A stretch of 12,018 bases of DNA. Source: an uncultured Pseudomonadota bacterium. Lineage in GTDB: Bacteria > BMS3Abin14. The translations under genes and the position numbers were made by a program. Within the stretch, counting starts at the first letter, position 1. Each line of letters opens with the position of its first letter. The stretch spans positions 1 to 12,018 of the forward strand of contig CAYVSA010000057.1 of assembly GCA_964454175.1 (NCBI GenBank), written 5' to 3'. Shown in pieces: positions 1 to 12,018 of the stretch. Below the pieces are notes generated by a model that saw nothing but the letters and a program-made list of their open reading frames with translations, was not told the origin of the DNA and did not search any database.

Positions 1-15
1 CGAAGAGGTGACCTA

Positions 16-960
16 ATGAAAAAAGTCGGCTCCTTATTACGATCGCTTACACTATTTGTCGCAGCACTTGTGTTCCTCGTGCAAGGCAGCCTGACCATGG
101 CGTCAGCGAGCCAGGTCAGCAGCGGTAAGATAGTCGCTGTTGGCGGGGTGGAGCATGATTGGGGTTTCATTGACATAAAGGGCGGCAACCTTAAGCACAG
201 GTTCACACTTCTGAATACCGGGAAGCAGGACCTGATTCTCAAAGGCGGTTTCACATCGTGCGGATGCACCAAAGTCAAGTTCACCCTGGCTGACGGTTCG
301 GTTTCCCCGGAATTCGGTATGTCTCTGATGTCGGATTGGGTCGGAGTTGTCAGGCCGGGTGAAAGCTTTGACGCAACAGCAACATTTGATCCGCTTGCCC
401 ACGGTCCGGACGCCCTTGGTCCTGTTGTGAGGAAGGTTTATGTTGTCAGCAGCGCTCCTCCAGACGGCCGCATAACAACGATAATGCCTATCGTCAGGGA
501 CGGCAGTGTCACGACCATGCAGCTATCCGGAAATATTGTTTCTCCTGAGGAGTTCAGGAGCAGCGCCGGACCGAAAAACTACGAGTATGCCCTGGGGAAT
601 TTCAAATTCCGCGAGACGGAACACGACCTTGGCCGCCTGAAGCAGAGTCAGGGGATCGTCAAGTTCGAGTTCCCGTTCGTCTATGATGGAAAAGAAGCAG
701 CAACTGTCACCGGAACACCAACAAGCTGCGGGTGTACTACTGCCTCAGTGTCGGTGAAAACACTGAAACCGGGCCAGGAGGGCGTACTCATGGTTGAGTT
801 CGACCCGAATTTTCACGAAGAACCTGCTGGAAAGTTCTTCAGGACCATATCAATTCTCACAGATCCTCCCCAAAAAGAGCGGGCTGAAGTACGTGTCTGG
901 GCTGAGATCGATAAGGACCTGGGGCACGAAGCGTATAAACATAAAGAACATGACGATTAA
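16..960 (+). CDS. Exported protein with two DUF1573-like (Ig-like) domains
   Basis: 314 aa. GAGGTG RBS upstream. Signal peptide (MKK, hydrophobic core, ASA site). Two repeats of the DUF1573 pattern (D-x-G-x-I/L ... F ... TSCGCT ... PG ... FDP). His/acidic C-terminal tail. Confidence 0.8.
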   Translation: MKKVGSLLRSLTLFVAALVFLVQGSLTMASASQVSSGKIVAVGGVEHDWGFIDIKGGNLKHRFTLLNTGKQDLILKGGFTSCGCTKVKFTLADGSVSPEFGMSLMSDWVGVVRPGESFDATATFDPLAHGPDALGPVVRKVYVVSSAPPDGRITTIMPIVRDGSVTTMQLSGNIVSPEEFRSSAGPKNYEYALGNFKFRETEHDLGRLKQSQGIVKFEFPFVYDGKEAATVTGTPTSCGCTTASVSVKTLKPGQEGVLMVEFDPNFHEEPAGKFFRTISILTDPPQKERAEVRVWAEIDKDLGHEAYKHKEHDD

Positions 961-1145
961 TTAACGGATCCATGTCCCAGGACCCAAGACCCATGTTGGT
1001 TAAATCAGAGTTTGAAAAATTGGCGATTGGCCCTTCGACTAAATCAGGGGCGATGCTCACGGCAGGCAATGGGTTAGAGGCCGTAGGCAAGGGGAAGAGG
1101 CAGACGTATCGGGGTAGAACATTGGAGCGTTGGGCATAGGAGCAG

Positions 1146-1457
1146 CTACTTATCGATCTCGAACCTGATATCAGTCACGACACCTTCTCCTACCTCACGA
1201 GCAAGCCTGGCCAGGAGTTCGCTTTTCATCATAGTGAGCTCCTGCATCCAGGTCGGGCTCTCCACGGTAATGACGAGGACAGAGTCCCGGAACCTGGAAG
1301 CCTGGGAGTATTGTGCGGCATCGCCGGCAATTACTTCCCACGCGAGCATTGCTCTGCCCCTGTCTGATGTTTCTTCCGGGAGCCCAAGGCTCTCCAGAAG
1401 ATTTTTTATAACACTCCCAATAGGCGTGAGCGGCTGTTTTTTTCGTCTTGAGTTCAC
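1146..1457 (-). CDS. DUF721 / DciA-family protein
   Basis: 103 aa, GTG start with AGGA RBS. Motifs 'PIGSVI', 'AWEVIAG', 'LVITVESPTWMQELTMMKSELLARL' and 'VTDIRF' are typical of DUF721. Confidence 0.85.
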   Translation of the reverse strand: MNSRRKKQPLTPIGSVIKNLLESLGLPEETSDRGRAMLAWEVIAGDAAQYSQASRFRDSVLVITVESPTWMQELTMMKSELLARLAREVGEGVVTDIRFEIDK

Positions 1458-1496
1458 TATCAGTCCTTGTAATTACCTAAAAATAGTCGTATTTTC

Positions 1497-1525
1497 TTGA
1501 CACTTCCGGGCAACAATACTAATAG
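1497..1525 (+). promoter_or_regulatory. Putative sigma70 promoter for the gntR pair
   Basis: Perfect TTGACA at 1497-1502. The -10 candidate TAATAG at 17-bp spacing (1520-1525) is imperfect. Confidence 0.45.
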
Positions 1526-1526
1526 A

Positions 1527-1554
1527 TATTGTGTATTGTATATTGTATACAATG
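1527..1554. promoter_or_regulatory. Putative GntR (FadR-subfamily) operator
   Basis: Perfect 12-bp palindrome ATTGTATACAAT (1542-1553) within phased TATTGT repeats. It fits the GT-Nx-AC GntR motif and lies between the promoter and the first gntR start. Confidence 0.65.
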
Positions 1555-1594
1555 TAACAATACCATCTCACCTCCGACTGGAAGACAATACGAC

Positions 1595-2281
1595 ATGAAG
1601 CTCAGAAAACACAAGACCCTAAGAGAGCAGATAGTCTTTTCCCTCCGCGAATCAATTATCAGAGGCGATTTAAAACCGGGGCAGAAGCTCACAGAGCCGG
1701 AACTGGCAAACCGCCTCGGCATCAGCAGGACCCCTATAAGGGAATCCTTCCGCCAACTGGAGAGCGAGGGGTTTCTAACGGTTGTTCCCCGTAAGGGGGC
1801 GGTAGTATCGAGTATCACCAGAAAGGATATAGAAGATTTCTATGAACTTAAAAGCCTGCTGGAAGGATATGCTGCGAGAATAGCTGCAGAGAGGATATCA
1901 ACAAAAGACGTGGAAAACCTGGTTAAACTCAATCAAAAGCTTAATGAGTTTGCGGATAAGGAACAGCTGGAAAAATTTTTTTCGAAGAACGAGGAATTTC
2001 ACAATTACTATTTAAACCTCTGCGGCAACGAAAAGCTGGTGGAGATCAGGGATTCGATGGTAAAAAGGTTCCTGGGCTTCAGGATGGCGGCCCTGTCGCT
2101 GCCCGGCAGGCTTGAAGAATCGGTCAAGCAGCACGAGCAGATCATTAAGGCATTCAAGAGGAAAGATGGCCGGCTGGCTGAGGCTGTTGTGGTTGAGCAC
2201 GCCCTTCTCGGGGGAGACTACCTTGCCGAGCAGGTGGACAGAAGCTCCAGGGAACAGACAGATCCTGAGAGGAAGAGATGA
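1595..2281 (+). CDS. GntR-family transcriptional regulator (wHTH + FCD domain), copy 1
   Basis: wHTH 'LKPGQKLTEPELANRLGISRTPIRESFRQLESEG...PRKGAVV'; FCD motifs NEEFH, QHEQI and EH. ATG 1595 (228 aa) is preferred over the track start at 1529, which lies in the operator. Confidence 0.92.
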   Translation: MKLRKHKTLREQIVFSLRESIIRGDLKPGQKLTEPELANRLGISRTPIRESFRQLESEGFLTVVPRKGAVVSSITRKDIEDFYELKSLLEGYAARIAAERISTKDVENLVKLNQKLNEFADKEQLEKFFSKNEEFHNYYLNLCGNEKLVEIRDSMVKRFLGFRMAALSLPGRLEESVKQHEQIIKAFKRKDGRLAEAVVVEHALLGGDYLAEQVDRSSREQTDPERKR

Positions 2282-2955
2282 AAGATTTCAAGATCAAGAT
2301 CGAAGAGCCCAAACTGCTTTCAGAAGACATTGCAGACTCTATCAAAACCGCTATCATCAAGGGCAAATTCAAGCCTGGGGAGCGCATATCCGAGGGAGAT
2401 CTGGCCGACACGATGGGTATATCAAGGACGCCGCTCCGTGAAGCCTTCAGGAAACTGGAAAACGAGGGCTTCATTACGATAATTCCCCGCAAGGGTGCTA
2501 TTGTGACAGAGATCGACCCGGAAGAAGCCAGAGATCTTTACATCATTAAGGGAACCCTTGAAGGCCTGGCCGCAAGGCTGGCAGCCCCGGTAATAAAAGA
2601 GAGGGATATCGAGAAGCTGGAAAAGATAAACGATGAGTTAAAGGGCCTGATGGATGGTAACGATCTGGAGAGCTTCTACAGGCTGCATCGGCGGTTTCAC
2701 ATGGTTTTTGTGAAGGCTTCCGGCAACACAAGGCTCATCCAGATGATCTCTAACCTCAACGATCATTTCAAGCGGATAGGCATTGTTTCCCTTACCCTCC
2801 CGGGACAGTTCGAGCAGACCATCCACCAGCACGAACAGATCATAAAGGCCTTCAAAAAAGGAAATGAAAAGGCAGCCGAGGAGAAGGTCAGAGAGAACGT
2901 CCAGACCGGTGGACAGGTTCTGCTGGATCATCTGTCGGAATCTGGTGATGAGTGA
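2278..2955 (+). CDS. GntR-family transcriptional regulator (wHTH + FCD domain), copy 2
   Basis: 225 aa. 'FKPGERISEGDLADTMGISRTPLREAFRKLENEG...PRKGAIV'; FCD motifs HRRFH and QHEQI. ATGA overlap with the upstream gene. Confidence 0.92.
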   Translation: MKDFKIKIEEPKLLSEDIADSIKTAIIKGKFKPGERISEGDLADTMGISRTPLREAFRKLENEGFITIIPRKGAIVTEIDPEEARDLYIIKGTLEGLAARLAAPVIKERDIEKLEKINDELKGLMDGNDLESFYRLHRRFHMVFVKASGNTRLIQMISNLNDHFKRIGIVSLTLPGQFEQTIHQHEQIIKAFKKGNEKAAEEKVRENVQTGGQVLLDHLSESGDE

Positions 2956-2967
2956 TGGTGATGATGA

Positions 2968-3207
2968 TCTGGTTTCTGGTTTCCAGTTTCTGGTATTCAA
3001 TCGACAGGGAGCCCGAACCTGGTAATCAGTAGTCGAAATGTTTATTATGGACAGGGTTCTTCTTCCATTTCCCACTCTCCATTTTCCAATTTTCATTACT
3101 CTGTTTACTAATGCTCTTATTTCTAATATCTAATTGTCTTGGAATAAATTTTCAATTTCCAATGTGCTTTTTAACTAACCCGGGATCTGGGTCCCGGGGT
3201 TTGGGAA
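2968..3207. repeat. Degenerate heptameric tandem repeat clusters
   Basis: tctggtt/tctggtt/tccagtt/tctggta (2968-2995); ttccatt/tcccact/ctccatt/ttccaat/tttcatt (3063-3097); ttctaat/atctaat (3121-3134); tttcaat/ttccaat (3150-3163); ccgggat/ctgggtc/ccggggt/ttgggaa (3180-3207). Confidence 0.6.
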
Positions 3208-3226
3208 TCTTTACAACCTGACAACC

Positions 3227-6049
3227 ATGAAGCGAAGAACATTTCTCAAGATAGGCGGAGCTGCACTGGCGGGTCTTCTGCCGCGAACGGGCAGGGCAGG
3301 TGCCAGGCCAGCCCAGGTCTCCCGTCCAACGGTCGTTTACGGTGAAGAAGTAGCCAGCCGATGCCCTCTCTGCTCCATGGGCTGCGGGACGATCTCGTTT
3401 CTGGACCCCTCGGGTCTTCTGAAAATAGAGGGGGACCCCGACTGCCCCATCGCCATGGGCAGTCTTTGCGCCAGGGGCGCTGCTTTTGTCAAGGTCAACG
3501 GGATATGGGAAAAACAAAAACCGTTGTACCGGCGTCCGGGCGCACTCGACTGGGAGGAGATCAGCCTGGATAGTGCCCTGGGCAGGGTCGCACGGCGCAT
3601 TAAGGATATGCGAGATGTAAGGATGAGGACGGCCAAAGGTAAGGGCAGCGAACGAAACCGCTTCGATTCCATGGCCCTTATCGCGGGGGGTAACCTTACC
3701 AATGAACAGGCCTACACAGCGGTCAAGCTCTTCCGTTCTCTGGGAGTAGTTCACATGGACACAACGGTCCGATCCTGCAGGGGGATGGCGGCTGCAGGCC
3801 TCATGGACACTCTGGGCCTTCCGGGCCCGACCCATTCAACTGACCAGGTCGCCAAAGCTGACGTAGTAGTCCTTTTGGGAACCAATCCCGGCCTCACATC
3901 ACCGGCCCTGGCGAGGTCATTGGAGGATGTGCGAAAACGAAGTGGAACAGTTATTATTCTCGACCCTCGAAGGACTGAAACAGCGCGGCCAGATGACATC
4001 TGGCTGAATGTTCGCCCCGGAAGTGACGCTGCCGTTCTTGGGGCCATGATATCCTGGGTGATGGAAAAGGGTAAGGTTCGCGTGGATGAACTCACCGGAT
4101 ACACGGACGCAAACTTCATGACAGTTACCGAGTTCGAAGGTGAATACGAGCGCTTCACATCAGGGAAGAAAAAAGGCGGACTCATTCGTGACAACACCCT
4201 CACTGAACCCTATTCAGTATATCAGCGTCTGAGGGCTCACTACTCGAGATATTCCCTCGAAAATGCATCGGCCATAGCCGGTATCGACAAGGCACTCCTG
4301 AGGAGGGCATGCCGACTGCTGGCCAGGACTGGAGAGCAGGAGTTTTCCGCCTGTTTCGTTCTTGGGTCGGGAGCAGTATCTGGTACCTCAGGGGCTGAGC
4401 TGACAAGGCAGGTGGCGATACTCCAGGCCCTCCTGGGTAATCTCAAGAAACGCGGCGGTGGAATAGTGATGGCTGCGGGAGCAGGCAACGCACAGGGAGT
4501 CTGCGATATGGGGCTGCTCTCGCCTTATCTCCCAGGTTATCTGCCCCTTCCCATTGTGGGCAGGGATCCACTGAAAAGCGCGGGGAGCAAAAGTGAAGGA
4601 CAAGCGATCCAGGCCCTTGCAAGGACATGGTTTGCAAGAGACGGTGGGGCTGAAGCGGCCTCCCTGCTGCCAGGAAGGTACAAGGGCGAAGACCTTACGG
4701 TTAACGGGATCATCCGCAATATAGCATCAGAGAAAATAAAGGCCCTGGTTGTCATCGGGGCCGAACCCTTTAACAGCCTGCCTGGCCGGAAGCGCCTTCT
4801 GGAGGCCATGGAAAAACTTGATCTCCTCGTAGTCATGGATATAGACCCTGGAAGCACCTGCAACTTCTGGAAGTCTGCAAAAAGGGGTTCACCCTCTGTT
4901 AAAACGGAGATTATGTTTATTCCTGTAGAGCCCCCAGCCCTACGCTTGGGAAGTGTTACCGATGGGTCCCGGCGAGTTCGCTCCCTGGCCTCAGCTCTGA
5001 AAATCCCGGAAGATGGGGCCTCACTCCTGGCAGTGCTGTCCGCACTGGGGCATGGGATTCAGACTATTTACAGACAGGAAAAGGGGTTTGCCGCAGGTCC
5101 TGTAGAGGCAATGATCTGGCCCTATAATATCACCGTGAAAAAAACCGCAGATGAGATAAACGGCGTCGTGGATCCATCTGAATCTACGCCTCGATTCCTG
5201 TCGCCTGGAAATAGCTGGCCCAGGGAGGCCCGCTGCGGAAACAGGCTTTACAGGGGCTGGATGACAGAGGAAGAATGGCTTCCCGAGCGCAGAGATAACT
5301 CCGATCCTTTTGGAAGGGGCTTTTTCGGCAGGTGGGGCTGGTTCTGGCCATGGGGGGTGCCTGATCCGTTCTCTCATGTCTATTTTGACAAGACAGACAG
5401 GTCTGTGCTCCTCCGCTGGGACGAACAGGGCAGCACAAGACTTAAGGCCAGGGATGTTTTGCCGCTCAGGCCCGGTTTACCCATCCTTTTCTGGAAGAAA
5501 GTGAGTAAAGGAACGGTTTTCCCTGAGCATTACGAGCCTTTTCACAGCCCCGTTCCTGATTTCTTCACGGGGGGAACATCTGATCCTTTCGTCAGGCTCA
5601 GGGATGGCGGCCTTAAAGAGTGGGACTATCTTTTCAGGAGACCGGAAAGGGTCCTAAGTAAATTTCCAGTGATCCTGACGTTTCGCCGTACCGGCAACAT
5701 CATGGGAAGCGGGGGCGTTCTTTCCAGGGTGGACTGGCTGGCCGAATTGGGTACGGTCAGGATCATGGAGATCAGTCCGGAATTTGCCGATGAACTGGGC
5801 GTCAAGGATGGGGCAAAGGTCAGCGTTACTTCTCCTGATGACAAGGCCGCCCTCACTGCGAGAGTTGCGGTGACCTCGAGGATAAGGGATTTTTCCTATG
5901 CTGGCGTGCGGCATCCTGTCGCATCCATGACTCTATTCGGTGGTGGGGACCTGTCTGCCAACACACTGATGACGGCTATCCAGAACACTTCCAACGGGGG
6001 CTTCGAAATGAAAGCATTCCTGGTGAGGGTTGAAAAGAAGGGAACGTGA
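3227..6049 (+). CDS. Divergent FdhA-like molybdopterin oxidoreductase (DMSO reductase family), Tat-exported, non-canonical active site
   Basis: 940 aa intact ORF. Tat motif KRRTFLK. [4Fe-4S] motif CPLCSMGC...LCARG. Collinear with the downstream FdhA (PLYRRPG, LDPR, FPEHYEP, EMKAFLV). Active site reads RSCR instead of RIUH. Confidence 0.85.
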   Translation: MKRRTFLKIGGAALAGLLPRTGRAGARPAQVSRPTVVYGEEVASRCPLCSMGCGTISFLDPSGLLKIEGDPDCPIAMGSLCARGAAFVKVNGIWEKQKPLYRRPGALDWEEISLDSALGRVARRIKDMRDVRMRTAKGKGSERNRFDSMALIAGGNLTNEQAYTAVKLFRSLGVVHMDTTVRSCRGMAAAGLMDTLGLPGPTHSTDQVAKADVVVLLGTNPGLTSPALARSLEDVRKRSGTVIILDPRRTETARPDDIWLNVRPGSDAAVLGAMISWVMEKGKVRVDELTGYTDANFMTVTEFEGEYERFTSGKKKGGLIRDNTLTEPYSVYQRLRAHYSRYSLENASAIAGIDKALLRRACRLLARTGEQEFSACFVLGSGAVSGTSGAELTRQVAILQALLGNLKKRGGGIVMAAGAGNAQGVCDMGLLSPYLPGYLPLPIVGRDPLKSAGSKSEGQAIQALARTWFARDGGAEAASLLPGRYKGEDLTVNGIIRNIASEKIKALVVIGAEPFNSLPGRKRLLEAMEKLDLLVVMDIDPGSTCNFWKSAKRGSPSVKTEIMFIPVEPPALRLGSVTDGSRRVRSLASALKIPEDGASLLAVLSALGHGIQTIYRQEKGFAAGPVEAMIWPYNITVKKTADEINGVVDPSESTPRFLSPGNSWPREARCGNRLYRGWMTEEEWLPERRDNSDPFGRGFFGRWGWFWPWGVPDPFSHVYFDKTDRSVLLRWDEQGSTRLKARDVLPLRPGLPILFWKKVSKGTVFPEHYEPFHSPVPDFFTGGTSDPFVRLRDGGLKEWDYLFRRPERVLSKFPVILTFRRTGNIMGSGGVLSRVDWLAELGTVRIMEISPEFADELGVKDGAKVSVTSPDDKAALTARVAVTSRIRDFSYAGVRHPVASMTLFGGGDLSANTLMTAIQNTSNGGFEMKAFLVRVEKKGT

Positions 6050-6081
6050 GCCTGGCAAGGTCAGGTTCGGGATGCGTCGGT

Positions 6082-6110
6082 TAGACATTGCGTGTCAGAT
6101 TGGATATAAG
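6082..6110 (+). promoter_or_regulatory. Possible sigma70 promoter for fdhE
   Basis: TAGACA-N17-TATAAG in the 111-bp gap before fdhE. Confidence 0.3.
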
Positions 6111-6160
6111 GATTGAATACCAAATTCCATCTACCTGAAGGCTGAACCAACGGGAGAGAC

Positions 6161-7048
6161 ATGAATAACTTTGAAAGCCGTGAAAAAACGTTCAGAGATG
6201 CTCTGTATTCCGGGGTAATGGATATTGAGGAGATGGAGGATGTCCTTGCACTCTACAGGGACCTTTATCCCGTAATATCAAAAAAGCTGGCAACGGCAGG
6301 AAAACAGAGGGAGCTGAGCTCCGAAGAGGCCAAAGTACGGCTCGGTGAGGGATTCACTCTCCTTGACCCCAAGGATCTGCTGCCAACCGAAAAGGGCATG
6401 GTCAAAAGGGCTGTGGCAGTGGCTGACGTTCTGGGAAAGCACTCTCAGGAAAATACGCCGTGGTCGGACGGCAGCCTTGACAGGCTTCTGGAGCCGGCAG
6501 TTTTGGCCAAACTGGTTTCCGAGTATCTGTCAGGAGGCGAAGAGACCCTGAAAAAGGAGCTGGCCAGAGTTTCTGTTGAGAAGGATCTTGGAGTATTCCT
6601 GGTCTTTAACGTTACGAAAGGAGTATTCCTTACAGCGGCAAGATCGCTCGGGGACGCCGACACCGAAAGCTGGGAGGGCGGCAGCTGCCCGGTTTGCGGA
6701 GGAGGACCCGCTGTGGCTTCGCTGGAGGAGGAGGGTGGCAAACGGTATCTCGTCTGCCACAGGTGCCATTGGAAATGGAGATATCCCAGGGTCCGCTGTC
6801 CCTTCTGCGACAGCACCGACCATGAGCACCTTGGCTACTTTACTGTTGAAGAAGAGCGGGAAAATGTGAGAGTGGATTTTTGCAGAAAATGCAGCGGATA
6901 TATCAAGACCTGGGACATGAGGGATGGCTCGGAAATTGTTCCGGAAGCCCAGGACCTTCTGACTGTGCGCTACGACCTTGCAGGAGAGGGAGAGGGTTTC
7001 ACCCGAAAGGCACCAAATCTTTTCGGGGTACGAGTGGGAACCGATTAA
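6161..7048 (+). CDS. fdhE: Formate dehydrogenase accessory protein FdhE
   Basis: 295 aa, GGGAG RBS. Four CxxC motifs in the FdhE arrangement: CPVCG, 'RYLVCHRC', 'RVRCPFC' and 'CRKCSGYIKT'. Adjacent to the fdh operon. Confidence 0.9.
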   Translation: MNNFESREKTFRDALYSGVMDIEEMEDVLALYRDLYPVISKKLATAGKQRELSSEEAKVRLGEGFTLLDPKDLLPTEKGMVKRAVAVADVLGKHSQENTPWSDGSLDRLLEPAVLAKLVSEYLSGGEETLKKELARVSVEKDLGVFLVFNVTKGVFLTAARSLGDADTESWEGGSCPVCGGGPAVASLEEEGGKRYLVCHRCHWKWRYPRVRCPFCDSTDHEHLGYFTVEEERENVRVDFCRKCSGYIKTWDMRDGSEIVPEAQDLLTVRYDLAGEGEGFTRKAPNLFGVRVGTD

Positions 7049-7193
7049 GAGTCAGGGTCTTTATGTGGTTTTTTACTCTGGTTACATGTTTTTAATTTAA
7101 AATTCCTTGAAATAAAATAGCGTTTGATGTAAATGTGATTATTGGGTTATTGACCGGGTAAAGTTCAGCTGTAGCTGCGGGAACCCACGGGGG

Positions 7194-7222
7194 TTGCTAC
7201 TGAGGTTTTAAACCAATACATT
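7194..7222 (+). promoter_or_regulatory. Putative sigma70 promoter of the fdh leader/operon
   Basis: TTGCTA (7194-7199)-N17-TACATT (7217-7222). The predicted start near 7229 lies upstream of the structured RNA. Confidence 0.4.
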
Positions 7223-7260
7223 ATTAGATAGCACGGTATTACCGTGCTTGACAGTCTAGT

Positions 7261-7353
7261 CGACTTCCGATCCCGTTTCGTCCCTCCGGGATGTTCGGGA
7301 CGATAGGGTTTGGCGAGCAATTGCCGAGCCTGCCTATCTTGCAAAGGAAGCCG
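7261..7353 (+). ncRNA. Moco/Wco (Tuco)-like riboswitch aptamer candidate lacking P3
   Basis: P1 CUUCC(GA) 7264-7270 pairs with (AAA)GGAAG 7343-7350. P2 is 7271-7300. AGGG leads into a 10-bp P4 (7307-7316/7321-7330) capped by a GCAA (GNRA) loop. The 3' segment GCCU-GCCUAUCUUGC-AAAGGA parallels the Moco motif GCCU-CCCGUAUUUGG-AAAGGA as recalled. Located directly upstream of a Mo/W enzyme. Confidence 0.65.
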
Positions 7354-7383
7354 TGACTTGCTCATGGCTTCCTTTATTTATTT
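7343..7383 (+). terminator. Intrinsic terminator in the fdh leader (attenuator)
   Basis: 14-bp stem AAAGGAAGCCGTGA / TCATGGCTTCCTTT (one G-U pair), 5-nt loop, running into TTTATTTATTT about 100 nt before the fdhA start. Confidence 0.75.
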
Positions 7384-7478
7384 GAGATCATGACCTTTTG
7401 AGGAAGGGAGGTTCAGGGGGCTGATCGGGGCGGCTTTCGGGCCGTAAATTTAATGTCTTAACCGTTACAGGAGAAAGG

Positions 7479-10400
7479 ATGGTGAAGGCTAGGATGAACG
7501 TAACCAGGAGAGATTTCTTAAAGATCTCTGGTGCCACAGTCTCAGGTGCGGCGCTGGGTGGTCTGGGTCTCAAGGGTACGGCCGCTGCTGCCGGAAGGTC
7601 AGGCAACGTTGCGGTAAAGTACTCCAGGGAGACCAATTCCATCTGTCCGTTCTGCGCCGTGGGATGCGGCATGGTCGTTCACTCCCACAACAACAAGGTG
7701 GTCAATATGGAGGGTGATCCGGACCATCCCATTAACATGGGTACCCTCTGTTCAAAGGCCCAGGCTCTCAGGCAGGTCTCTGAGAACCCGTGGCGGATCA
7801 CCAGTCCCCTTTACCGCGCGCCGAGAAGCAGCGAGTGGAAAGAGGTCAGTTGGGATTGGGCGTACAACGAGATCGCCAAAAGGATAAAGAAGAGCCGCGA
7901 TGCGGGCTTCACGAAAGTGAACTCCAGCGGTCAGGTAGTTAACCGAAACGACGGGATCGCATCCGTCGGTTCCGCCGCTCTGGATAATGAAGAGTGCTAC
8001 ATCCTCCAGAAGTGGCTTCGCGCCCTCGGCCTGGTGTATATCGAGCACCAGGCGCGCATATGACACAGCGCAACTGTAGCGGCTCTGGCAGAGTCGTTTG
8101 GGCGCGGCGCAATGACAAACCACTGGGTAGACATCCGTAATTCGGATGTGATCCTGGTGTCGGGCAGCAACGCTGCCGAGAATCATCCCATATCATTCAA
8201 GTGGGTGAAAAAGGCCATGGATAACGGGGCCAGGCTGCTTTCCGTGGACCCGAGGTTCACGAGGACTTCCTCCAAGGCTGATGTGTATGCACCTATGAGG
8301 TCCGGAACGGATATCGCCTTCCTCGGCGGTATGATCAAGTACATCCTGGACAACGAGCTGTATCACAAGGATTACGTGAGGCTCTACACAAACGGGCCAT
8401 TTATCCTCAACAGCAGTTTCAAGATGCCGGGAGACCTCGATGGTGTGTTTTCCGGATACGATCCCAAGAAGCGCAGCTACAACAAGAAGGCGTGGGCTTT
8501 TTCTGCGGACAGCAAAGGTGTAGTCAGAAAAGACCCGGACATGAAGGACCCCATGTGCGTCCTTCAGCTTCTCAGAAAGCACTTTTCAAGATATACGCTG
8601 GACAAGGTGTCGGCTATCACTGGTACGCCAAAGGACAAGCTGCTTGCTGTCTACAAGGAGTATGCGTCCACAGGCAAGGCCAACCGTACCGGTACGATCA
8701 TGTATGCCATGGGCTGGACCCAGCACACCGTGGGAACCCAGAATATTCGAACGATGGCAATGATCCAGCTGCTGCTGGGCAACATCGGGATGTCCGGAGG
8801 AGGGGTCAATGCCCTCAGGGGAGAGTCCAATGTTCAGGGCTCCACCGACCACTGCCTCCTGTTCCACATCCTGCCCGGCTATCTGAAGACTCCCAGGGCT
8901 TCCAACAGCACCTTCGCCAAATACAACGAGAAGTGGACACCAAAGACGAAAGAGCCGTATTCAGCAAACTGGTGGGGCAACTATCCCAAGTACAGCGCCA
9001 GCCTGATCCGGGCTCACTTCGGCACTGGTGCCGCCCTGTCAACTCAGTACCAGTGGCTGCCCAAGCTGGATGACGGTCAGAACGCTTCCTGGCTCATGCT
9101 GTTTGACGAGATGAGCAAGGGCAAGTTCACCGGATTCTTTGCATGGGGCCAGAACCCTGCCTGCTCCGGTTCCAACGCGGGAAAGGTTCGAAACGCCCTG
9201 GGAAAGCTGGACTGGATGGTCAACGTCAACCTGTTCGACAACGAGACGGGCTCCTTCTGGCGCGGACCTGGAGTAAATCCCTCGGAGATCAAGACCGAGG
9301 TGTTTTTACTTCCATGCGCCATGTCCTTCGAAAAGGAAGGCAGCATTACGAACAGCGGACGATGGGGTCAGTGGCGCTGGGCCGCAGTCAACGGACCCGC
9401 ACCGTCGGATTCGGAAATAATCAACGATCTCCAGTTCAGGGTCAGGAAGCTCTATGAGGAGCAGGGCGGCGTTTACCCCGACCCGATCCTCAACCTGGCG
9501 TGGGACTACGGTGCCAAGGGCCCAGACGGCAAAGTCAAGCGAGTGGATACGCACCTGATAGCCAAGGAGGTCAACGGATATTTCCTGGCCGACAAGGTTG
9601 TGAAAGGCAAACAGTTCAAGAAGGGCGACCTTGTGCCGTCCTTTGCCTTCCTTCAGGACGACGGATCCACATCCTCGGGTAACTGGCTGTATTGCCAGTC
9701 TTACAATGGCGATGGGAATAACATGGCCCGCAGGAGCACTTCCGATCCTTCCGGCATCGGCCTCTTTCCCAAGTGGTCATGGTGCTGGCCCGTCAACAGG
9801 AGGATCATCTACAATCGTGCCAGCGTGGACGAGTACGGTAAGCCCTGGGCTCCTCACAAGCCTGTCGTTTACTGGAACGGGAAGAAGTGGATCGGCGATG
9901 TTCCCGATGGCGGATGGCCTCCGCTTCGCAAGGCTGACGGCACGTGGAACGAGAAGACCAAGCTGGCCTACATCATGAAGCCTCACGGAGTCGGTCACCT
10001 CTTTGGCCCCGGCAGGGCGGAAGGTCCGTTCCCGGAGCACTACGAGCCTCTCGAGTGCCCCATCCAGACAAATCTCATGAACAAGCAGAGGATCAACCCG
10101 GTGGCCAAGATCTTCACGGGCAAAGAGGATGTGTTCCTCACCTGCGATGACCGGTATCCAATAGTGGCCACCACGTACCGCGTCACTGAACACTGGCAGA
10201 CCGGAGTTCTTACGCGATGGCTGCCCTGGCAGGCCGAGATGCAGCCGGCAAACTTCTGCGAGATCAGCAGAGAGCTTGCAAAAGAAAAGGGCATCAAGAA
10301 CGGGGATAAGGTAGTCGTTTCCTCGGCCAGAAACAAAGTCGATGCCATCGCGGTCGTCACAATGCGGTTCAAACCCTTCAAGATCGCGGGCAACACGGTG

Positions 10401-10586
10401 CATCAGGTCGGACTTCCGTGGTGCTTCGGTTGGGCAACAACCGAAAACGGGGTGAAGGCAAACAACATACCTTACAGCAATCCGACATTCGGTGATTCGT
10501 CGAACCTGCTGACTCCGTCGGTCGGTGACGCAAACACAATGATTCCAGAGACGAAGGCCTTTATGGTCAACGTCGTGAAAGCCTAG
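7479..10586 (+). CDS. fdnG: Selenocysteine-containing formate dehydrogenase alpha subunit (FdnG/FdhA type), 1035 aa, Sec195
   Basis: Track ORFs 7479-8063 and 8112-10586 are in frame and joined by TGA at 8061-8063: EHQARI-U-HSATVAALAESFGRGAMTNHW. Tat motif TRRDFLK; CPFCAVGC...LCSK; ALRGESNVQG; TTYRVTEHWQTG; PETKAF. AGGAG RBS; alternative start ATG 7494. Confidence 0.96.
8064..8098 (+). promoter_or_regulatory. Bacterial SECIS element
   Basis: Hairpin AGCGGCUCU-GGC-AGAGUCGUU (8078-8098) with a G-containing apical loop about 23 nt after the in-frame UGA. Confidence 0.8.
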
Positions 10587-10602
10587 AAAGGGGGTGATTT
10601 GA

Positions 10603-11436
10603 GTGGCTGATAAAATGATCGTTGTTGATACTTCAAGGTGTACTGCCTGCCGCGGCTGCCAGACAGCCTGCAAGCAGTGGAATAACCTATCAGCGGTTCG
10701 GACATCGAACCGCGGCGGCTACGAGAACCCCCCTGACCTCGGGTACAATACGTACCTGAAGATCCGCTTTAATGAGATCGAGTCAGGCGGAGAGGTCAAG
10801 TGGCTGTTCGGTCAGGCGAGGTGTATGCACTGCTCTGACGCAGGATGCATGAAAGCGTGTCCGGTTCCCGGCGCCATCACCCGCGACTCAAACGGGGCTG
10901 TGGTTATTAATCAGAACCTGTGCACAGGCTGCAAGTACTGTGTGTTCGGGTGCCCCTTCGAGATACCCAGGTATGATATGGGGAATGCGGAAGGCTACGG
11001 CAAGGACAAGGCCTTCAAGTGCACCATGTGTGCAGACAGGCAGGGACTGGGAATGTCTCCGGCCTGCACCAAGACCTGTCCCACGGGCGCCCTGTCTTTC
11101 ACCGACAGGTCAAAGCTGCCCGGTATTGCAGCTGGCGCCAAGAAGGCGGGAATGACCGTCTACGACGGCGGTGCTCTTCAGACCAATGTTGTCTTTCTCC
11201 TCGAGGATAAGGCTTCTGCTTATGGTCTGCCCGCCAAACCGTCCATTCCGACACCAACCTACCTGTGGCGCACAGTCATGAAGCCGGTTGGCGTGGCGGC
11301 ATTCGTCCTCGGGATCCTGGCAGCGATAACGCACCTGGTGACCGTTGGCCCCAAGGAAGTGGACGAAGGTGATGACGCCCCCGGCTCATCGCCATATCAG
11401 GGAGGAGGTGGCAGCGATGTCTCATCATCTAATTAA
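10603..11436 (+). CDS. fdnH: Formate dehydrogenase beta (iron-sulfur) subunit with C-terminal membrane anchor
   Basis: 277 aa, GTG start, GGGGGTG RBS. Four Cys clusters (CTACRGCQTAC, CMHCSDAGCMKAC, CTGCKYCVFGC, CTMC...PACTKTC). TM helix 'PVGVAAFVLGILAAITHLVTVGP'. Confidence 0.93.
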   Translation: MADKMIVVDTSRCTACRGCQTACKQWNNLSAVRTSNRGGYENPPDLGYNTYLKIRFNEIESGGEVKWLFGQARCMHCSDAGCMKACPVPGAITRDSNGAVVINQNLCTGCKYCVFGCPFEIPRYDMGNAEGYGKDKAFKCTMCADRQGLGMSPACTKTCPTGALSFTDRSKLPGIAAGAKKAGMTVYDGGALQTNVVFLLEDKASAYGLPAKPSIPTPTYLWRTVMKPVGVAAFVLGILAAITHLVTVGPKEVDEGDDAPGSSPYQGGGGSDVSSSN

Positions 11437-12018
11437 GCGCTTCACCTCCAGTGAGAGGTGTGTGCACTGGATAAACATGCTGGCTTTCATAGTCCTGGCC
11501 CTTACGGGTCTTGGTCTTTACAGCCATTCGTTCTTCGGTCTGACCTCCATCTTCGGCGGTGTGGACATGTCCAGGACCATCCACCATTTTACTGGCCTGG
11601 TGTTCATTGTCACTACACTGCTTATTTTCTTCCAGTGGTTGAAGGACTACTCGGCTGCTGCCGACGACTCCCTTGGAACTGTGATAAGCAGTTACATGGA
11701 TCACGACTTCAAGGGCCCTGCATCCGGCAAGCTTAACGCCGGCCAGAAGCTTCTTGGCTACACTGTGTTTTTATTCGGTGTTGTCATGGCGCTCACCGGT
11801 CTTGCGATGTGGTATCCGACAGTCCTTGGCCGAGGTATGCAGCAGTGGATGTATTTCCTGCACAACTTCGTGTTCACCCTGTTTATGCTGCTTATGGTGC
11901 TCCACGTCTACCTTGGTACAGCCGGCAACCCCGGAACATGGCGAGCCATGTCGAAGGGGACGGTTACCAAGGCTTGGGCGAAGAAGCATCATGGGGCGTG
12001 GGATGGTGAAGAAGCGTA
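11417..12018 (+). CDS. fdnI: Formate dehydrogenase gamma subunit (cytochrome b); stop codon probably cut by the window edge
   Basis: Not in the ORF track. GGAGGAGG RBS, ATG 11417: MSHHLIKRFTSSERCVHWINMLAFIVLALTG...RTIHHFTG...GKLNAGQK...FLHNF...VLHVYL...AMSKGTVTKAWAKKHHGAW. Four hydrophobic segments with heme His ligands. 200 codons, then 'TA' at the window end. Overlaps fdnH by 20 nt. Confidence 0.93.
   Translation, partial: MSHHLIKRFTSSERCVHWINMLAFIVLALTGLGLYSHSFFGLTSIFGGVDMSRTIHHFTGLVFIVTTLLIFFQWLKDYSAAADDSLGTVISSYMDHDFKGPASGKLNAGQKLLGYTVFLFGVVMALTGLAMWYPTVLGRGMQQWMYFLHNFVFTLFMLLMVLHVYLGTAGNPGTWRAMSKGTVTKAWAKKHHGAWDGEEA

Follow-up and report, generated by a model that had tools for sequence, protein, structure and literature searches.

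The leader of the formate dehydrogenase operon fdhABC in a 12,018-nucleotide (nt) stretch of DNA from an uncultured Pseudomonadota bacterium (GenBank contig CAYVSA010000057.1, positions 1 to 12,018; this whole stretch is termed the window) contains a riboswitch of the RF01055 (molybdenum cofactor/tungsten cofactor; Moco/Tuco) class without stem P3 that, with a probability of about three in four, functions as a transcriptional ON switch gating this selenocysteine-containing formate dehydrogenase. The strand that closes the aptamer is also part of an intrinsic terminator. This platform is conserved in the lineage of the window and recurs widely before genes for cofactor-dependent enzymes, and its ON function is predicted rather than demonstrated. 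With somewhat less confidence, the evidence leans towards a class-wide rule with two directions, not in print, in which OFF switches precede genes for cofactor supply and coenzyme-ON terminator switches precede genes for enzymes that consume the cofactor. The features that carry the argument are:

7253-7365, plus strand: aptamer without P3; P1 7264-7268/7346-7350, P2 7271-7275/7296-7300 and 7279-7284/7288-7293, P4 7306-7316/7321-7331 with a GCAA loop, P5 7332-7333/7341-7342, junction AAA 7343-7345
7343-7383, plus strand: intrinsic terminator; stem 7343-7356/7362-7375, loop 7357-7361, U-rich tail to 7383
7494 (or 7479)-10586, plus strand: fdhA, formate dehydrogenase-N alpha subunit (TIGR01553, 1386.5 bits against a cut-off of 814.2)
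10603-11436, plus strand: fdhB, 4Fe-4S subunit with the formate dehydrogenase-N transmembrane helix (Pfam Fer4_11 and Form-deh_trans)
11345-12016, plus strand: fdhC, cytochrome b subunit (Pfam Ni_hydr_CYTB, 1.3e-25), with an uncertain start and running off the window

When the window was compared with all of Rfam by cmscan, RF01055 was the sole match above threshold (7253-7365, plus strand, 40.0 bits, gathering score 36, E = 9e-07), with an alignment that spans the full model, 1-135, and has the P3 columns deleted. The original prediction of a Moco/Wco-like riboswitch is upheld by this covariance-model match, and by sequence the element is a true riboswitch of this known class. Stem P3, the presence of which has been proposed to mark the Moco type and the absence of which the Tuco type, is missing, so that the element falls in the P3-less subclass. 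In the core of P1, CUUCC (7264-7268) pairs with GGAAG (7346-7350), and no variation is seen among 14 orthologues in the junction bases CCGA, AGGG, GCCUGCC and GCAAAGGAAGC. All 14 have a GCAA or GUAA loop on P4 with the P2 receptor columns deleted, which fits the correlation, given in Regulski et al. 2008 (PMC2408646), of a P2 receptor with a GAAA loop only.

A consensus scan of 6900-7600 identified a single terminator-like site, a 14-pair stem with six G-C pairs and a 5-nt loop followed by ATTTATTT. The left arm of this terminator is composed of the AAA junction (7343-7345), the entire P1 3′ strand and six further bases. Positions 7343-7350 had been described beforehand as both the P1 3′ strand and the left arm of the terminator; the overlap is as described, but strictly 7343-7345 form the junction between P5 and P1 and are not part of P1. 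Because bases 7343-7350 belong to both structures, P1 and the terminator are mutually exclusive, as had been proposed, and the best folds of 7253-7383, when forced to contain one or the other, have energies of -45.9 kcal/mol with P1 and -58.5 kcal/mol with the terminator (computed, not measured). The whole stretch 7253-7390 folds at -59.6 kcal/mol (shuffle mean -39.7, z = -5.15, with none of 200 shuffles as good), and this minimum-energy fold holds the terminator, not P1. For a nascent RNA that extends to 7353, the minimum-energy fold is the complete aptamer with P1. The computed energy of the terminator hairpin alone is -20.6 kcal/mol. As the terminator-forced fold is the more stable, termination would be the default outcome, and only the holding of P1 and its junction would prevent it.

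Two elements are located upstream of the aptamer:

7107-7135, plus strand: promoter-like element of low confidence, with a -35 sequence TTGAAA (7107-7112), a 17-nt spacer and a -10-like TAAATG (7130-7135)
7230-7248, plus strand: hairpin or palindrome, AGCACGGUA U UACCGUGCU, directly 5′ of the aptamer (-11.8 kcal/mol, z = -4.23)

A CTTGAAA sequence with a TAnAnT-like box ~17 nt further on is aligned in most of the 14 orthologous leaders, ~150 nt 5′ of the aptamer, and transcription probably starts from the TTGAAA-17-TAAATG motif near 7140, ~120 nt upstream of the aptamer. The aptamer would then fold first, closed by the 5-bp P1 as computed, and ~12-25 nt later the polymerase would make the right arm of the 14-bp terminator. 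In the absence of ligand, the much more stable terminator would displace P1, halting transcription at the U-tract (about 7376-7383). Binding of the pterin cofactor would instead hold P1 and the junction, so that the terminator would be blocked and the polymerase would read into fdhA. The exported selenocysteine apoenzyme, which is costly, would thus be made only with cofactor available. That the ligand stabilises P1 we infer by analogy with the genetics of Escherichia coli moaA, as given in PMC2408646. The hairpin at 7230-7248 is a perfect 9-bp inverted repeat, which could serve to stabilise the RNA or as a protein operator; in relatives its place is taken by a hairpin of different sequence.

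An OFF switch, in which the ligand would favour termination through another fold or an unrecognised upstream anti-terminator, is quite improbable. It would agree with the characterised member, E. coli moaA, which is OFF, with the speculation in PMC2408646 that enzyme genes might be repressed, and with the published Eubacterium limosum models, all of the anti-sequestor or anti-terminator type in the part of PMC11725836 consulted, and it could give a role to the hairpin at 7230-7248, which lies just upstream with none assigned. Against this, the terminator needs exactly the bases, 7343-7350, that the bound aptamer would hold, the shared strand co-varies with both of its partners, and the overlapping arrangement tracks genes that use the cofactor, not genes that supply it. 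In addition, the OFF leader in the same genome has a separate terminator that is compatible with P1.

That leader is the second RF01055 match in the genome of the window (G000:C1:13998-14115, 63.5 bits) and is positioned before moaA. Its terminator begins 18 nt after AAAGG, and the aptamer with P1 coexists with the terminator in the minimum-energy fold. Until the right arm of the terminator has been made, the best fold instead pairs CGAGCC of the aptamer with the left arm of the terminator. With a terminator that is separate and P1-compatible, and with this alternative pairing of CGAGCC and the left arm, the moaA leader has the textbook OFF design. On these folding models, the same aptamer class would be used in opposite senses within one genome, OFF before moaA and predicted ON before fdhA. 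Stem P3 was considered as a marker of the wiring and ruled out, because the OFF-type moaA leader is also without P3 and an ON-type leader (L123), before a gene encoding an aldehyde ferredoxin oxidoreductase (AOR), has P3.

The phylum of the window is represented by 16 species genomes, all of one family and including that of the window (G000). An RF01055 match is present in 15 of these, and a short form (111-114 nt) with the same terminator in 14; the two genomes that lack the short form are 77% and 78% complete. All but one of the 14 short forms score above the cut-off, with that in G001 at 33.9 bits. Every one of them is followed by a terminator that starts at AAAGGAAGC and is located upstream of an orthologous selenocysteine FdhA, so that the arrangement, expected to be kept in homologous fdh leaders, is kept in 14 of 14. 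In the aptamer alignment, 94.7% of the cells are paired, and ten pairs have changed on both sides (three in P2, six in P4) as compared with 4.9 ± 1.4 in shuffles, none of 500 of which reached ten. The five core pairs of P1 and the pairs of P5 are invariant. The terminator is 96.4% paired over the 14 orthologues; eight of its 14 pairs are invariant and three vary on one side. Within this lineage, to judge from the alignments, the overlap is strongly conserved, yet there is no co-variation to prove it.

These data also bear on the idea that the element is decayed or ligand-independent, a structured leader with a constitutive terminator or RNA-stability hairpin, and that fdhABC is instead controlled by proteins such as the GntR/FCD regulators. 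The closeness of the Rfam score to its cut-off and the two GntR/FCD genes at 1529-2955 would be consistent with such an arrangement. It is nevertheless highly improbable: across 14 genomes the aptamer junction bases never change and both P2 and P4 show co-variation, the same arrangement recurs before genes for cofactor enzymes across many phyla, and a constitutive 14-bp terminator ahead of the operon would silence it.

The predicted ON arrangement was also looked for in other lineages. In the phylum of genome G038, a match was present in 54 of the 93 genomes examined, and 15 matches were picked by length alone (110-112 nt). All 15 short-form matches precede a gene with AFOR_N and AFOR_C domains, an AOR, and 13 have a hairpin and U-run with a left arm that starts AAAGG (-10.8 to -18.9 kcal/mol); of the other two, one has a hairpin without a U-run and one has neither. 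Many of the 117-122 nt matches that were inspected have AAAGGAGG and then a start codon 12-15 nt further on, before genes for signal-peptide proteins, and so conform to an OFF design with the Shine-Dalgarno sequence within P1 (SD-in-P1). A pattern scan of a reference collection, with one genome per species, used aptamer bases only, ending GCAAAGG, and yielded 80 loci of at least 119 stretches. These come from records titled Anaerolineae/Chloroflexota, Caldisericaceae, Clostridia, Sporomusa, Moorellaceae, Ignavibacteria, Spirochaetes, Desulfobacteraceae and others, and include Sporomusa acidovorans DSM 3132, Clostridium thailandense PL3 and Maledivibacter halophilus M1. A terminator was scored as overlapping when GGAG of the shared strand paired, over a span of at most 60 nt, with the 14 nt that immediately precede a U-run, at an energy no weaker than -14 kcal/mol. 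The test over-calls weak hairpins, and the energy and span thresholds removed other weak, long-range calls. Among the matches listed, this test assigns an overlapping terminator to 55 of the 80 loci; as a control, 55 of 79 testable loci passed, compared with 10 of 395 when the downstream sequence was shuffled.

For the analysis of co-variation, 52 of the scan loci (with those before genes of the carboxymuconolactone-decarboxylase (CMD) family excluded) were pooled as ON-type elements with 14 from the phylum of the window and 14 from the G038 phylum. Placement of the P1 5′ strand relied on the closure of P2 and was independent of P1; the terminator partner was read from the fold. Twelve elements in which the P2 closure was not found (L086, L111, L116, L122, L123, L129, L143, L148, L150, L155, L063 and L069) were dropped and three duplicates were removed, leaving 65 elements that include relatives sharing states. 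The shared strand is GGAAG in 17, GGAGG in 17, GGAGC in nine, GGAGA in seven, GGAGU in seven and one of four rarer forms in the remainder. Given as P1 5′ base, shared base and terminator 3′ base, the triples at position 4 are C-G-C (33), U-A-U (16), C-G-U (8) and U-G-C (4), and those at position 5 are C-G-C (24), G-C-G (7), C-G-U (6), U-A-U (5), A-U-A (4) and A-C-G (4). Positions 3-5 are paired in both helices in 50 of the 65 elements, whereas 2000 shuffles averaged 9.6 and never exceeded 19; the terminator pairing is in part built in, as the partner was read from the minimum-energy fold. In this sample, the shared strand co-varies with both P1 and the terminator. The co-variation of P1 and terminator that the original prediction had suggested looking for among orthologous fdh leaders is not seen there, where changes are absent or one-sided, but is found in this wider sample of other lineages.

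The loci were also grouped by the Pfam families of the first downstream gene. As the loci are interrelated to unknown degrees, the following counts of overlapping terminators are descriptive and not a test:

AOR: 28 of 33
oxidoreductases with a bis-pyranopterin guanine dinucleotide (bis-PGD) cofactor: 4 of 4, three from the phylum of the window
4Fe-4S proteins: 9 of 12
rhodanese: 3 of 3
Moco biosynthesis: 0 of 2, both SD-in-P1
transport: 1 of 7, four SD-in-P1
Cu_amine_oxidN1: 0 of 3, all SD-in-P1
CMD family: 3 of 6 by the fold test
other or no family: 4 of 6
no open reading frame (ORF) in the locus: 3 of 4

Of these, the CMD-family calls L101, L130 and L154 were rejected; the hairpins are weak and resemble anti-terminators of a stronger downstream terminator, and these loci were therefore counted as OFF. 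The same core precedes small CMD/AhpD-like genes in L092, L101, L130, L134, L146 and L154, mostly with a separate terminator and an OFF-type design. In three records titled Chloroflexota (L084, L085 and L158), overlapping terminators precede genes for exported proteins with rhodanese domains, which have no obvious link to use of the cofactor. Under the proposed rule, OFF switches, built as SD-in-P1 or with a separate terminator, would control moaA, moaC and the uptake of tungstate and molybdate, ON switches would control AOR/WOR, formate dehydrogenase and Fe-S subunits, and one genome could have both.

Several observations weigh against the ON reading. The RF01055 score is only 4 bits above the cut-off, and one orthologue is below it. 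The terminator U-tract is interrupted (UUUAUUUAUUU), and a scan of 6900-7600 for sigma-70 promoters found no site at the thresholds applied, which leaves the conserved motif as the only indication of a promoter. No compensatory change was detected in the P1 core or terminator pairs among the 14 orthologues; with both helices invariant in the phylum of the window, the co-variation comes from other lineages, and it was obtained with the partly built-in terminator pairing and after the dropping of the 12 elements in which the P1 5′ strand could not be placed. Five of the 33 AOR leaders have no overlapping terminator. The ON reading does not account for a further ~100 nt of conserved leader 3′ of the terminator (7384-7484). 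In public sequencing data, 24 runs matched 6900-8100, each with at most 0.14 of the sampled words. Four RNA or possibly RNA runs gave short contig pieces of relatives, mostly less than 95% alike and mainly from the conserved part of fdhA (7940-8100), and were not used as evidence of transcription, nor was a 1130-nt contig from a 'probably DNA' run that touches 7264-7309 and 7472-7512 with a different spacer between them. In Eu. limosum, tungsten limitation left the transcripts of the riboswitch-led WOR1 operon unchanged, and its leader was modelled as translational in the part of PMC11725836 consulted.

The conserved region 3′ of the terminator contains three elements, recognised in the alignment of the 14 leaders:

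7400-7411, plus strand: purine-rich box, GAGGAAGGGAGG (consensus GGAAGGAGGUG in relatives)
7456-7463, plus strand: UCUUAACC box
7474-7484, plus strand: ribosome-binding region, AAAGGAUGGUG

The ribosome-binding region (AAAGGAAGGUG) closely resembles the 3′ end of the aptamer, AAAGGAAGC. When read-through leaders were folded, the partner of the freed right arm of the terminator was the purine box in ~8 of the 14 loci and the ribosome-binding box in four. The freed right arm, CUUCCUUU, can pair with either purine element, hinting at a second, translational layer, and in this phylum the repeated GGAAG/CUUCC boxes may provide one. Carried further, the aptamer would be real but the main control would be elsewhere, with the hairpin a leaky attenuator and the decisive step translational, set by competition among the pyrimidine-rich right arm of the terminator, the purine box (7400-7411) and the ribosome-binding region (7474-7484); one variant of this scheme would be a switch that acts at two levels. 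The conserved boxes 3′ of the terminator, the near repeat of AAAGGAAG of the aptamer in the ribosome-binding region, and the pairings just described speak for such control, but the folds are inconsistent among orthologues, with neither pairing seen in the window, the leader fold is not better than shuffles (z = -0.24), and overlapping terminators occur in other phyla without such boxes. Translational control as the main mechanism is therefore unlikely, and transcriptional ON control is preferred. An insert of ~120 nt, similar in two genomes that belong to one genus, follows the terminators of both the fdhA-type (L018, G015) and the moaA-type (L004, G012) riboswitch. In L018 it is located about 20-140 nt past the terminator. 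The insert, which may represent a small mobile or repeated element, holds hairpins and the start of a short ORF (…GAGGAAAGUGAAAAUGACAC…).

Of the two cofactors, that of tungsten is the more likely ligand, a preference that fits the context listed here and is not proven by it. The overlapping design is strongly associated with AOR genes, which fits tungsten, and the genome of the window (98.5% complete) has an AOR gene but no ModA or WtpA match. This AOR-family gene (G000:C45:10366-14793, L200) is 2-4 kb from TupA-like, TupB-like and ABC-ATPase genes. The TupA-like gene scores 235.6 bits, below the cut-off of 400, and there is no RF01055 match at this AOR locus. According to PMC2408646, the P3-less form was proposed as the sensor of the tungsten cofactor, and direct binding was not shown by its authors because the cofactor is unstable.

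With respect to the operon itself, FdhA has the Pfam domains Molybdop_Fe4S4, Molybdopterin, Molydop_binding and TAT_signal. Its in-frame TGA selenocysteine codon is at 8061-8063, and the motif HQARI*HSATV is present with TGA in 14 of 14 orthologues. A hairpin after the TGA was evaluated as a candidate selenocysteine insertion sequence, and its fold was not better than shuffles (z = -0.47). FdhA (MNVTRRDF…) has its conserved start at ATG 7494, and an additional upstream in-frame ATG at 7479 is specific to the window. It arises from a one-base difference in the conserved ribosome-binding box, AAAGGAUGG as compared with AAAGGAAGG in relatives. A gap of 430 nt separates fdhE from fdhA, and the genes upstream of the leader are:

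16-960: gene for a DUF1573 protein
1529-2955: two adjacent genes for GntR/FCD regulators (Pfam), upstream of the oxidoreductase/fdh cluster
3227-6049: formate dehydrogenase-like molybdopterin oxidoreductase, 940 amino acids (TIGR01553, 384.9 bits, below the cut-off)
6161-7048: fdhE

The two GntR/FCD genes encode possible protein-level regulators of the locus. The oxidoreductase at 3227-6049, upstream of fdhE, is a second and divergent formate dehydrogenase alpha-like protein, with no in-frame stop or selenocysteine codon and no riboswitch.

A parallel for the proposed wiring is the adenine riboswitch of Bacillus subtilis ydhL/pbuE, in which, reportedly in work by Mandal and Breaker in 2004, the bound aptamer prevents termination and so turns expression ON. 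It too has a 3′ part of the aptamer that doubles as the left arm of an intrinsic terminator, but it belongs to an unrelated aptamer class with a different ligand and serves an efflux-pump gene, whereas here a coenzyme would control an enzyme that uses it. The E. coli moaA leader described in PMC2408646 shares P1, P2, P4, P5 and the conserved junctions and likewise leads a cofactor-related operon; P1 of moaA, however, hides the ribosome-binding site and represses expression, whereas here P1 competes with the terminator and binding should therefore activate. The consulted sections of that study also report that terminators follow some Moco RNAs and that both types of platform are possible in one organism, and its supplement lists members before formate dehydrogenase-N-like and COG2414 genes. 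In the same sections, the sign of regulation is given for moaA only and repression is suggested for enzyme genes. In the part of PMC11725836 consulted, five Tuco riboswitches of Eu. limosum, by the present analysis the only organism with published data on this point, are all modelled with anti-sequestor or anti-terminator structures, and two operons with terminator-type leaders are up under tungsten limitation, that is, OFF. These are P3-less RF01055 members that precede a tungsten enzyme operon (WOR1) and transporters, and two of the five have terminators, but an ON design with overlapping P1 and terminator is not described in that part of the paper. For the E. coli torCAD leader, the portion of PMC10845959 consulted presents a hypothetical control dependent on bis-molybdopterin guanine dinucleotide, possibly through RNA in the 5′ untranslated region. 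As proposed here, a molybdoenzyme operon would be expressed only with the cofactor present, but in torCAD the binding is putative, no RNA motif was defined, and the sequence is specific to E. coli and unrelated to the moaA riboswitch.

The original prediction had presented both the opposite logic and the use of a termination platform as departures from the characterised RNA. The terminator platform was already known, having been reported in 2008 (PMC2408646), and the ON logic is the part that is unreported in the literature searched. No description of ON logic for RF01055 was found in the full-text literature and supplements searched, subscription journals being outside the search, and the reviews and regulon surveys searched are silent on the direction of regulation.

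If the prediction is correct, a coenzyme riboswitch would here license the synthesis of its own apoenzymes, for which there are few precedents. To our knowledge, the Moco/Tuco class has one characterised member, an OFF switch. The ON design would explain the members of the class that precede genes for cofactor-using enzymes, a puzzle since 2008, and the cell would make an expensive, exported enzyme that contains selenocysteine and Fe-S clusters only with the pterin cofactor at hand. With the split by gene class, the sign of regulation of any RF01055 match could be read from a simple structural rule, ON before AOR, formate dehydrogenase and their Fe-S partners and OFF before genes for biosynthesis and uptake. 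Such a rule would be useful in the annotation of tungsten and molybdenum metabolism in uncultured anaerobes, and it is open to direct test in the cultured carriers S. acidovorans, C. thailandense and M. halophilus.

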